This document shows positions 27,143-29,344 of a stretch of 52,086 nt of DNA, piece after piece. The position numbers and the translations under genes are program-made. Under the pieces are notes generated by a model. It made no database searches and was not told the origin of the DNA. It saw only the letters and a program-made list of their open reading frames with translations. This DNA comes from a virus (Duplodnaviria > Heunggongvirae > Uroviricota > Caudoviricetes): IMG/VR virus record IMGVR_UViG_3300012281_000001. The stretch is one strand, 5' to 3'. The first letter of the stretch is position 1. Each line of letters starts with the position of its first letter.

Positions 27143-28174
27143 ATGTCCAATTTACTGACCGTACACCAAAATTTGCCTGCATTACCGGTCGATGCAACGA
27201 GTGATGAGGTTCGCAAGAACCTGATGGACATGTTCAGGGATCGCCAGGCGTTTTCTGAGCATACCTGGAAAATGCTTCTGTCCGTTTGCCGGTCGTGGGC
27301 GGCATGGTGCAAGTTGAATAACCGGAAATGGTTTCCCGCAGAACCTGAAGATGTTCGCGATTATCTTCTATATCTTCAGGCGCGCGGTCTGGCAGTAAAA
27401 ACTATCCAGCAACATTTGGGCCAGCTAAACATGCTTCATCGTCGGTCCGGGCTGCCACGACCAAGTGACAGCAACGCTGTTTCACTAGTCATGCGGCGGA
27501 TCCGAAAAGAAAACGTTGATGCCGGTGAACGTGCAAAACAGGCACTAGCGTTCGAACGCACTGATTTCGACCAGGTTCGTTCACTCATGGAAAATAGCGA
27601 TCGCTGCCAGGATATACGTAATCTAGCATTTCTGGGGATTGCTTATAACACCCTGTTACGTATAGCCGAAATTGCCAGGATCAGGGTTAAAGATATCTCA
27701 CGTACTGACGGTGGGAGAATGTTAATCCATATTGGCAGAACGAAAACGCTGGTTAGCACCGCAGGTGTAGAGAAGGCACTTAGCCTGGGGGTAACTAAAC
27801 TGGTCGAGCGATGGATTTCTGTCTCTGGTGTGGCTGATGATCCGAATAACTACTTGTTTTGCCGGGTCAGAAAAAATGGTGTTGCCTCGCCATCATCCAC
27901 CAGCCAGCTATCAACTCGCGCCCTGGAAGGGATTTTTGAAGCAACTCACCGATTGATTTACGGGGCTAAGGATGACTCTGGTCAGAGGTACCTGGCCTGG
28001 TCTGGACACAGTGCCCGTGTCGGAGCCGCGCGAGATATGGCCCGCGCCGGAGTTTCAATACCGGAGATCATGCAAGCTGGTGGCTGGACCAACGTAAATA
28101 TTGTCATGAACTATATCCGTAATCTGGATAGTGAAACGGGGGCGATGGTGCGCCTGCTGGAAGATGGTGATTAG
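27143..28174 (+). CDS. cre: Cre tyrosine recombinase
   Basis: 343-aa protein MSNLLTVHQNLPALPVDATSDEVRKNLMDMFRDRQAFSEHTWK... recognised as P1 Cre; loxP about 420 bp upstream. Confidence 0.98.
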   Translation: MSNLLTVHQNLPALPVDATSDEVRKNLMDMFRDRQAFSEHTWKMLLSVCRSWAAWCKLNNRKWFPAEPEDVRDYLLYLQARGLAVKTIQQHLGQLNMLHRRSGLPRPSDSNAVSLVMRRIRKENVDAGERAKQALAFERTDFDQVRSLMENSDRCQDIRNLAFLGIAYNTLLRIAEIARIRVKDISRTDGGRMLIHIGRTKTLVSTAGVEKALSLGVTKLVERWISVSGVADDPNNYLFCRVRKNGVASPSSTSQLSTRALEGIFEATHRLIYGAKDDSGQRYLAWSGHSARVGAARDMARAGVSIPEIMQAGGWTNVNIVMNYIRNLDSETGAMVRLLEDGD

Positions 28175-28191
28175 CCGTCAATGTACAATAA

Positions 28192-28208
28192 ATTGCTCTA
28201 ATTATTTG
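28192..28208 (+). promoter_or_regulatory. C1-operator-like site upstream of cra
   Basis: ATTGCTCTAATTATTTG, 33 nt before the cra ATG. Confidence 0.55.
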
Positions 28209-28224
28209 ATATTTATGGTGGCAT

Positions 28225-28536
28225 ATGAGAAAGGATTTCAACATCGACGGAAAATATGTAGTGCTGTCTGTAAGCACTAATATTCAGTCGCCAGCCGTCA
28301 TTGTCACTGTAAAGCTGAGCGATAGAATGCCTGATATTGACTCAATATCCGTTGCGTTTCCTGTCAAAAGTATGCGTAGTGCTGAACATTTCGTAATGAA
28401 TGCCACCGAGGAAGAAGCACGGCGCGGTCTTGGTAAAGTGATGTCTGAGTTTGGCGAATTTCTGGGGCACGTTAACAAAGCCCTCACAATCAGTTCAGCA
28501 AGGTCCAAAGCGTTAACAGCTTCCATGATGAAATAA
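28225..28536 (+). CDS. cra: cre-associated protein
   Basis: 103-aa ORF between cre and ref with an operator upstream; symbol by position. Confidence 0.5.
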   Translation: MRKDFNIDGKYVVLSVSTNIQSPAVIVTVKLSDRMPDIDSISVAFPVKSMRSAEHFVMNATEEEARRGLGKVMSEFGEFLGHVNKALTISSARSKALTASMMK

Positions 28537-28540
28537 AAAA

Positions 28541-28561
28541 AGCCTGGCAAGGAGCCAGGCT
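28541..28561. terminator. hairpin immediately after cra
   Basis: AGCCTGGC-AAGGA-GCCAGGCT preceded by an A-run; U-tract only on the minus-strand reading. Confidence 0.45.
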
Positions 28562-28667
28562 GCACAAAAGAGCGGGTTTGTATTCCGCATCCAATCAATC
28601 AAGAAGGAGTATAGCACACAGGTACTGAAGTGAAAAAATGTGATTCGCGATAAACAAAATATCTACC

Positions 28668-28697
28668 ATTGCTCTAATTGATTGCTATAATTGAGCC
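28668..28697 (+). promoter_or_regulatory. tandem overlapping C1-operator-like sites with embedded -10 (ref promoter region)
   Basis: ATTGCTCTAATTGATTG followed by ATTGCTATAATTGAGCC; TATAAT at 28686-28691; consistent with C1 control of ref. Confidence 0.6.
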
Positions 28698-28751
28698 GCA
28701 GTTTTTGTCAACTACGAAGACGTTGCCATTACTTCACTCCTTGACATCATT

Positions 28752-28777
28752 GGCGGCCATTAGGCCGCCTTTTTTTT
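28752..28777 (+). terminator. strong rho-independent terminator 7 nt upstream of the ref start codon
   Basis: GGCGGCC-ATTA-GGCCGCC followed by TTTTTTTT. Confidence 0.75.
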
Positions 28778-28783
28778 GACCAT

Positions 28784-29344
28784 ATGAAAACAATCGAACA
28801 AAAAATTGAACAGTGCCGCAAGTGGCAGAAGGCAGCCAGAGAACGAGCGATCGCTCGGCAACGGGAGAAGTTGGCTGATCCGGTCTGGCGAGAATCTCAA
28901 TATCAGAAAATGCGGGATACTATCGACCGCCGTATCGCTAAACAGAAAGAACGCCCACCAGCCAGCAAAACGCGGAAAAGCGCGGTAAAAATAAAATCTC
29001 GTGGCTTGAAGGGGAGAACACCAACGGCGGAGGAACGGCGCATCGCCAATGCTCTTGGCGCTCTCCCCTGCATTGCCTGCTATATGCATGGAGTAATATC
29101 TAATGAGGTGTCTCTGCACCATATCGCCGGTCGTACCGCGCCGGGTTGTCATAAAAAGCAATTGCCACTTTGTAGATGGCACCACCAGCATGCAGCACCG
29201 GCTGAAGTAAGAGCAAAATACCCCTGGCTGGTCCCTGTTCATGCCGATGGTGTGGTTGGAGGCAAGAAAGAATTCACCCTGCTGAACAAGTCAGAGATGG
29301 AGTTACTGGCTGACGCCTATGAGATGGCAAACATCATGCACTAA
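28784..29344 (+). CDS. ref: Ref recombination enhancement function, HNH-type endonuclease
   Basis: 186-aa protein with basic N-terminus and C-terminal Cys/His cluster (CIACYMHG...HH...CRWHH); matches P1 Ref. Confidence 0.85.
   Translation: MKTIEQKIEQCRKWQKAARERAIARQREKLADPVWRESQYQKMRDTIDRRIAKQKERPPASKTRKSAVKIKSRGLKGRTPTAEERRIANALGALPCIACYMHGVISNEVSLHHIAGRTAPGCHKKQLPLCRWHHQHAAPAEVRAKYPWLVPVHADGVVGGKKEFTLLNKSEMELLADAYEMANIMH

Follow-up and report, generated by a model that had tools for sequence, protein, structure and literature searches.

Comparative sequence analysis of a conserved intrinsic terminator between the C1-controlled promoter and the nuclease gene ref in P1-type phages

Transcription attenuation is well described for the trp, pyrBI and his operons of E. 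coli, whose structural genes are preceded by a promoter, a short leader and an intrinsic terminator. In the phage systems lambda N/nut, lambda Q/qut and HK022 put, an early or lytic promoter is likewise followed by a terminator which has to be passed. A terminated leader transcript could also act in trans, in the manner of attenuator-derived small RNAs such as rnTrpL of Sinorhizobium (PMC6614838), and within the P1 family the c4 RNA of immI (Rfam RF01695) restrains a harmful lytic function at the RNA level by pairing with its target mRNA. The closest system is the ref region of phage P1 itself. The title of Windle, Laufer and Hays (1988, J Bacteriol 170:4881) names attenuator control of P1 ref and, going by this title, proposes an antiterminator. 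More recent work reports that thermal inactivation of the C1 repressor raises ref RNA 73-fold, a rise determined by RT-qPCR to which amplification of the phage DNA could contribute, that a C1 site occludes "one of the ref promoters" and that H-NS binds ref's 5' regulatory region at CGATAAA, as found by EMSA and ChIP (PMC4713147). A literature search on P1 transcript mapping returned neither transcription start sites nor 3' ends for ref.

Here, the corresponding locus was analyzed in a window of 52,086 nt (IMG/VR record IMGVR_UViG_3300012281_000001; the window denotes this whole stretch), which belongs to a P1-type phage. Between 28200 and 29400 it shares 98.1% identity with phage P1 and 93-96% with P7, RCS47, SJ46 and other P1-like phages; the window represents a relative of P1 and not P1 itself. 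Its Ref protein is 98-100% identical to Ref proteins retrieved in a protein search and matches Pfam PF16786 (E = 3e-51) and PHROG 2321. GenBank entry M23246 of the 1988 authors corresponds to about 28514-28769 of the window, its final base being that of the hairpin described below, and the P1 record AF234172 (Lobocka et al. 2004), which takes Oref and P2ref from this entry, carries the operator, the promoters and ref at the corresponding bases, but not the terminator, and differs from the window by an extra A of the latter at 28779. The operator-promoter-terminator arrangement before ref is therefore a confirmed known feature, already reported for P1 in 1988, and not a discovery. The view of the initial annotation that neither a terminated RNA nor read-through or antitermination had been described for ref was mistaken in light of the 1988 title and of the annotation of Oref and P2ref in AF234172. 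As far as we have checked, the 1988 attenuator proposal has had no mechanistic follow-up since, and the comparative data from three Ref lineages and from genomes lacking ref provide new support for it.

Table 1 Features of the ref control region and its neighbours in the window.
Feature	Position	Strand	Basis
Cre	27143-28174		ORF list of the window
C8	28225-28536		ORF list of the window
CGATAAA, reported H-NS high-affinity site of the ref 5' regulatory region	28648-28654	.	sequence; PMC4713147
C1 repressor operator Oref, ATTGCTCTAATTGATTG	28668-28684	+	14/17 consensus matches; AF234172 (former Op1/Op2a)
Second operator-like copy with promoter -10, ATTGCTATAATTGAGCC	28681-28697	+	13-bp tandem repeat
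Extended -10 of P2ref, TGCTATAAT	28683-28691	+	sequence; AF234172 P2ref -10 at corresponding bases
Untranslated leader, 54 nt, no conserved ORF	28698-28751	+	moderate conservation of body only
Candidate antiterminator strand GUUGCCA, pairs with UGGCGGC 28751-28757	28722-28728	+	nascent-RNA fold; weak, not conserved
Predicted P1ref, TTGCCA - 16 nt - CATCAT, with TG	28723-28750	+	promoter scan; AF234172 annotation
CTCCTTGAC motif (CUCCUUGAC) just 5' of hairpin	28737-28745	+	kept across the three Ref lineages
Terminator hairpin GGCGGCC-ATTA-GGCCGCC, -15.0 kcal/mol	28752-28769	+	scan, simulations, conservation
T8 tract of terminator	28770-28777	+	sequence; length varies in relatives
ref, 186 aa, RecA-dependent HNH nuclease, no Shine-Dalgarno sequence	28784-29344	+	ORF; Pfam; PHROG

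As outlined in Table 1, the control region contains Oref, whose sequence agrees in 14 of 17 positions with the asymmetric 17-bp C1 operator consensus ATTGCTCTAATAAATTT (PMC8546580). Sites of this quality occur 12 times in the window with 0.23 expected. A second copy, ATTGCTATAATTG from 28681, is a 13-bp tandem duplicate of the first site, and the core ATTGCTNTAAT is found 10 times in the window (0.22 expected). Through a single C-to-A difference in the second copy the operator core becomes the perfect extended -10 TGCTATAAT: TATAAT occupies 28686-28691 and, since TG stands directly before it at 28683-84, the element is of the extended type. The 3' end of the operator coincides with this TG, so that operator and promoter overlap. 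The tandem C1-operator-like sites with an internal TATAAT, which the initial annotation had placed at 28668-28697, are thus present. In AF234172 the first site alone is annotated as operator (Oref, which "controls transcription of ref"), and the second copy is there the -10 of P2ref, for which the record points to "promoter 2 for ref" in GenBank M23246. A transcription start of P2ref near 28698 would be a reasonable inference from these elements. Among the relatives, TATAAT (CATAAT in loci L090 and L098) is kept in every locus with the 13-bp duplicate and is lost in L002, where the duplicate has collapsed to a single copy.

The terminator, which had been predicted about 55 nt after this start and ending at 28777, was found behind the 54-nt leader as GGCGGCC-ATTA-GGCCGCC followed by T8. 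Its stem comprises seven base pairs, all of them G/C, closed by a 4-nt loop, and the opposite strand carries no T-run. Perfect stems of at least 7 bp with a T-rich tail occur at four loci of the 52-kb window and in none of 100 Markov simulations. The 83-nt RNA folds with -23.4 kcal/mol (z = -3.45), and the terminator pairs form with a probability of 0.99 from every 5' end tested. In an RNA starting at about 28757 the terminator is unable to form. Only the six bases GACCAT separate T8 from the ATG of ref at 28784, and they hold no Shine-Dalgarno sequence, as had been noted. Evidently, the elements at these coordinates lie far beyond chance.

In order to follow these elements in related phages, viral contigs were filtered with a 15-mer anchor and BLAST, yielding 72 P1-like loci with 28 distinct leader transcripts; the same anchor scan of genome contigs gave chance matches only. 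Across 23 P1-type variants the stem is 99.4% paired, and the loop drifts freely (ATTA, ATCA, GAAA, TAAA, GCAA). The few stem changes are C-to-T transitions which leave G.U wobbles in the plus-strand RNA, with the sole exception of L002, a locus without ref that has one stem mismatch. CATCAT(T/A)GG together with the 5' arm of the hairpin shows 93-100% identity (86% in L002) and the 3' arm with T6 92-100%; the identity of the loop falls to 25% in the majority of the divergent loci and the loop is unchanged in L002, L003, L046 and L108. For comparison, the third codon positions of c8, which serve as a rough neutral yardstick, are 64-97% identical, and 64-69% in the most divergent loci. The T-tract measures 7-9 nt in the relatives with ref and is T6 followed by AA in those without it.

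Two further, more distant Ref lineages, here called S and Pa, were found by protein search and contig look-ups, with Ref proteins of 62-68% identity. The S lineage (64-68%) comprises L327, L328, L335-L338 and L415, from Salmonella and Klebsiella where the source is named. Except for L327, its members share one layout: ATTGCTCTAAT at about -112, TATAAT at about -94, a leader of 41-45 nt, CTCCYTGAC and the hairpin GACGGTC-TTCG-GACCGTC, followed by T5-8 and, 11-20 nt on, by the start codon. The start codons of the S lineage mostly lack a Shine-Dalgarno sequence. In L327 the motif, the hairpin (with the loop TACG) and T7 are retained, the operator is degenerate (TTGTTCTAAT), TATAAT is missing and the leader measures 38 nt. 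An operator is also present in the Pa lineage (L417, and L329 from Pantoea alvi), together with the hairpin GCCGCC-TCCG-GGCGGC and T7 about 95 nt before the start. In an alignment of the hairpins of all three lineages 97.5% of the cells are paired, compared with 18-69% in slid-alignment controls, and in three of the seven stem pairs both partners have changed (one from G-C to A-U, one from C-G to U-A with U.G as intermediate in L338 and one from G-C to C-G). None of 500 shuffles (0.201 +/- 0.026) reached the covariation score of 0.357, the underlying stem-pair changes amounting effectively to two or three independent lineage events, all in the same direction. Because the genes upstream in S and Pa are unrelated to C8, the operator-leader-terminator unit travels with ref. 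In L331, L332 and L334, whose Ref homologues lie within operons, a Shine-Dalgarno sequence is present and the terminator is missing, and it is also absent before the remaining, more distant homologues L330, L333, L414, L416 and L418.

From sequence comparison, the hairpin with its T-run can be regarded as a real, conserved intrinsic terminator behind a repressor-controlled promoter, and by comparative criteria this feature of the control region is functional. A mere chance juxtaposition of these elements without function could draw on the general frequency of weak terminator-like matches, of which a loose scan gave 5 with 2.7 expected. It is effectively refuted by the quality of the hairpin, unmatched in the simulations, by a stem that is kept while the loop drifts and by the pairs that covary across the lineages.

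A further promoter, P1ref, is predicted within the leader and is annotated in AF234172. Its boxes TTGCCA (28723-28) and CATCAT (28745-50) would place the start at about 28755-28759, inside the 5' arm of the hairpin, and P1ref transcripts would consequently be unable to form the terminator. The spacer between the boxes is 16 nt in all 47 ref-containing variants and 15 nt in seven of the nine without ref. The P1ref-like CATCAT is absent from the S and Pa lineages, which leaves read-through as their only evident route to ref. The alternatives put forward by the initial annotation, namely an approximately 80-nt terminated RNA or expression of ref by read-through or antitermination, are sound and fit all findings; they missed P1ref, which, as judged from its boxes, would be a third route to ref.

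The terminator is not confined to genomes with ref. About a fifth of the matching plasmid records (138 of 700) show a match that reaches no further than the end of the terminator, and at least 12 ref-less loci among the viral contigs retain the promoter, the leader and the hairpin with T6 with no ORF downstream on that strand. In these loci T6 runs straight into the 3' end of the convergent c4-icd-ant module, and the T-run is the precise point after which homology between genomes with and without ref ceases. Most of these loci show 100% conservation of the hairpin and of the CATCAT(T/A)GG before it, the exceptions being L002, L003 and L120 with 86-93%. A terminator-terminator recombination via P1's own ant as the origin of the ref-less junction was ruled out, as homology begins only at the ant stop codon. 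The ant of P1 has no such terminal hairpin, so that the ref-less genomes have a different arrangement, with the hairpin as a module boundary. A model in which the terminator is purely a damper of ref does not account for the persistence of promoter and leader in plasmids that lack ref.

Such a boundary could also be the main purpose of the hairpin, which would then chiefly terminate and insulate cre-c8 and delimit mosaic modules, ref being expressed essentially from P1ref and the output of P2ref being a by-product. The c8 hairpin (28541-28561) has its T-run on the minus strand only, and c8 transcripts should therefore continue to 28777. The break of homology after the T-run, the position of the hairpin between c8 and the convergent c4-icd-ant in ref-less genomes and the P1ref start within the stem agree with this reading as well. 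Yet the S and Pa lineages, with unrelated upstream genes and no P1ref-like -10, have the operator-promoter and the terminator before ref all the same, and ref is controlled by C1 (PMC4713147) although the operator does not overlap P1ref. Taken as the principal role of the hairpin, this explanation appears quite improbable to us.

The leader itself is less constrained than the hairpin. Its body (28698-28744) is 70-89% identical in divergent P1-type loci and 91-100% in the closest ones. A 33-codon TTG ORF crosses the leader of the window and begins upstream of the inferred transcript start. An ATG is found neither in the leader of the window nor in most variants (GACATGG occurs in L003, L064 and L120), and one-nucleotide indels and changes in T-run length generate at least six frame and spacing classes among the P1-type variants. 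For example, the spacer between T-run and ATG in ref-containing relatives reads G or GA, then CCAT; P1 lacks the A at 28779 and its upstream frame runs in-frame into ref, and the frame of the window, which stops at TGA 28777-79, is out of register with ref due to this extra A. The 33-codon ORF is not a leader peptide because its frame is not conserved, and trp-type, ribosome-mediated attenuation was ruled out on this ground and for want of a conserved start. In this respect the ref leader differs from trp, pyrBI and his, which have a conserved leader peptide and start codon. Likewise rejected was a conserved 5' leader hairpin (28698-28726), which is 86-90% paired, shows no covariation and is no better than shuffles.

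The only element shared by the leaders of the P1-type, S and Pa lineages is the motif just 5' of the hairpin, (C)UCC(Y)UGA(C/U), which resembles the 3' end of 16S rRNA. Searching the leader RNA with Rfam covariance models gave no match, with sub-threshold hits to small RNAs driven by the terminator (best 23.3 bits against a gathering score of 41), and no sites complementary to the conserved leader elements were found within the 52-kb window. These results bear on the possibility that the roughly 80-nt terminated leader is a functional, C1-repressed small RNA acting in trans, which would be compatible with attenuation of ref. Promoter and U-tailed terminator belong to the leader itself and do not depend on an ORF downstream, this unit persists in the at least 12 ref-less loci with hairpin and CATCAT(T/A)GG fully conserved in most of them, and the single-stranded CUCCYUGAC is conserved across lineages. 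Nevertheless, the leader body diverges at a near-neutral rate and is almost wholly different between lineages, neither a complementary site in the window nor an Rfam match above noise speaks for a target or a family, the TATAAT copy is lost in L002, and an insulator role explains the retention in ref-less genomes just as well. In comparison with rnTrpL, the ref leader unit persists without a downstream gene, and neither a strongly conserved seed nor, within the window, a target was found; c4 pairs with its target mRNA, whereas no such partner was found for the ref leader, which is not a match to RF01695 even though the c4-icd-ant module adjoins this very hairpin in ref-less relatives. A trans-acting leader RNA is improbable in our estimation. 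We give equally little weight to a free-standing, C1-repressed small-RNA gene, retained by P1-like plasmids after the loss of ref, whose product would be abundant on induction and whose CUCCYUGAC would act in trans or recruit a read-through factor, or, in a weaker form, to an attenuator switched by an antiterminator of P1 or the host and conserved across the three lineages.

Regulated antitermination, in which the terminator is efficient by default and is disabled in lytic growth by a phage or host factor or by an alternative leader fold, is named in the title of Windle et al. 1988, and this work, as far as its title tells, may point to regulated rather than constitutive read-through. In the nascent folds of the window and of the S lineage an upstream strand does lie on the 5' arm of the terminator. 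In the window this is GUUGCCA with UGGCGGC (ddG -7.7 kcal/mol, equalled by 5.5% of shuffles), and in the S lineage ACUGUCA plus GAAG pair with UGACGGU-CUUC, so that in both cases the upstream strand complements its own, differing, stem. In four cases, the window, L335, L337 and L338, 94.5-99.5% of the shuffles fall short of this complementarity (gain -7 to -8 kcal/mol). The conserved CUCCYUGAC beside the hairpin could furthermore be the binding site of a factor. On the other hand, the complementarity is no better than shuffles in six of eleven leaders (L064, L108, L003, L021, L327, L415), the GUUGCCA-type strand is absent from L064, L108, L003 and L021, and the alternative pairing shows no covariation within the P1 class. 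With -2 to -8 kcal/mol it is 4-13 kcal/mol weaker than the terminator at -10.6 to -15.8 kcal/mol, which sets ref apart from trp, pyrBI and his with their alternative helices of comparable stability. A second pairing, I1 (28695-28711 with 28741-28757), was rejected as antiterminator: some of its bases lie upstream of the likely P2ref start, so that it would be reserved to read-through transcripts, and its energy is not competitive either.

Ribosome-mediated control lacks a conserved leader ORF, and antitermination, if it exists, probably needs a factor. In contrast to lambda and HK022, the ref leader yielded neither nut or put nor any other cis-element of Rfam, and the control covers a single small gene instead of a long operon. 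No candidate factor was found: C8 was ruled out as antiterminator, having no informative domain and not being the gene next upstream in either S or Pa. P1 is not known to have an antiterminator protein. Altogether, we regard regulated antitermination as rather unlikely.

In the explanation that we favour, and hold to be somewhat probable, the terminator acts as a fixed damper and as an insulator of a harmful nuclease gene, and ref is expressed by read-through and, in the P1 lineage, additionally from P1ref. The hairpin arms and the T-run, 92-100% conserved in loci whose c8 third positions have fallen to 64-69%, argue for this. P2ref, a strong extended -10 promoter, would be off in the lysogen because Oref overlaps it, and H-NS would help to keep it off. 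Once C1 is inactivated, RNA polymerase would start near 28698 and transcribe the 54-nt non-coding leader; most polymerases would halt at the terminator (28752-28777) and release the leader RNA of about 80 nt, and the fraction reading through would yield the ref mRNA. The start sites and the efficiency of termination are here deduced from the sequence elements, and it is the leakiness of the terminator that we infer. We propose that the ref mRNA is also poorly translated for want of a Shine-Dalgarno sequence. The weak P1ref, confined to the P1 lineage, would start inside the hairpin and bypass the terminator, the share of ref attributed to it or to read-through being likewise a matter of deduction. 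The same hairpin would also end cre and c8 transcripts, a role that we propose since a T-run on this strand is missing from the c8 hairpin. As a net result, the host-damaging nuclease would be kept low and strictly tied to lytic induction.

What we observe directly, that is the sequence elements, their conservation and the covariation of the hairpin, reveals a terminator that has persisted in three Ref lineages, where the changes in its stem compensate each other, and in genomes without ref, and this comparative support leaves the existing picture unchanged. The most economical account, and the most likely one, consists of a C1-gated strong promoter, an efficient but leaky terminator, translation without a Shine-Dalgarno sequence and a bypass promoter in the P1 lineage; regulated antitermination and a trans-acting leader RNA are less probable, neither being strongly supported. 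Four layers of control, namely the C1 operator, H-NS, the leader terminator and the missing Shine-Dalgarno sequence, would together explain how a strong promoter gives rise to very little nuclease. Since the RecA-dependent nuclease Ref damages the host and reduces lysogenisation 40-fold (PMC4713147), the tightness of its restraint matters for P1 biology and for phage-antibiotic synergy.

A small RNA so far unannotated, approximately 70 nt long, is a candidate for the minus strand between c8 and ref; its features are collected in the table below together with those of the ref leader. Its core shows nearly no variation among 48 distinct sequences, with an identity of 98% versus 67-69% at the third codon positions of c8, and it is bounded exactly by a minus-strand terminator at one end and by an extended -10 at the other. 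Sequence changes lie in the -35 region and in the loops of both hairpins. Furthermore, a folding energy of -23.2 kcal/mol (z = -3.06) was obtained for the RNA. The candidate matches no Rfam family, is not annotated in the P1 reference record AF234172 and is missing from the S and Pa lineages of Ref.

Features between cre and ref (window positions)
Feature	Position	Strand	Remark
Candidate small RNA, whole region	28531-28636	minus	
Candidate small RNA, core	28536-28618	minus	
Candidate small RNA, folded RNA	28602 to 28531	minus	
Terminator of candidate small RNA	stem 28541-48 with 28554-61	minus	T7 on minus strand only
Extended -10 of candidate small RNA	28617 to 28609	minus	TGCTATACT
c8 operator-like site	28192-28208		ATTGCTCTAATTATTTG; P1 record 1485-1501
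c8-end hairpin	28541-28561	plus	
'Tandem operators' at ref	28668-28693		ATTGCTCTAATTG / ATTGCTATAATTG
Motif 5' of ref-leader terminator hairpin	28737-28745		(C)UCC(Y)UGA(C/U)
T-run of ref-leader terminator	28770-28777	plus	
TGA ending the frame upstream of ref	28777-79		
Extra A relative to P1	28779		TTTTTTTTGACCATATG (window) vs TTTTTTTTGCCATATG (P1)

The 'tandem operators' at ref represent a 13-bp direct duplication, which in plasmid pB1W1-p1 (L002:~1560) is reduced to one copy, whereby the TATAAT is lost. An operator-like sequence was also found 17 nt 5' of the c8 start. At this site reference P1 has ATTGCTATAATTATTTG, identical to the element at ref that combines the operator core with an extended -10. 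No operator is annotated at these bases in the P1 record, whose predicted Pc8 lies further upstream, inside cre.

Directly 5' of the terminator hairpin, the motif listed in the table is common to all three Ref lineages (window, L327-L329, L335-L338, L415 and L417), whose leaders are otherwise unrelated; it resembles the 3' end of 16S rRNA (CACCUCCUUA). In P1 the reading frame upstream of ref is open and in frame with the ref ATG; in the window this frame is closed by a TGA. Close relatives differ in the length of the T-run (7-9) and in the presence of the additional A.

At this locus, ref is missing in a subgroup of P1-like plasmids (L002, L003, L021 and about nine other loci). There, a complete c4 RNA-icd-ant module of the immI type converges on the ref-leader terminator (e.g. 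L002:1501-3109), the ant stop codon lying 2-3 nt past the T-run, and L021 contains two C4 RNA copies and one isrK match. In a P1-like plasmid of Escherichia albertii, an inserted IS200C transposase gene (L005:874-1332) separates c8 from the ref promoter region; ref, its leader and the terminator are intact.

Read on the c8 strand, the c8-end hairpin follows an A-run and lacks a 3' T-run; consequently, the cre and c8 transcripts probably run on to the ref-leader terminator at 28777.
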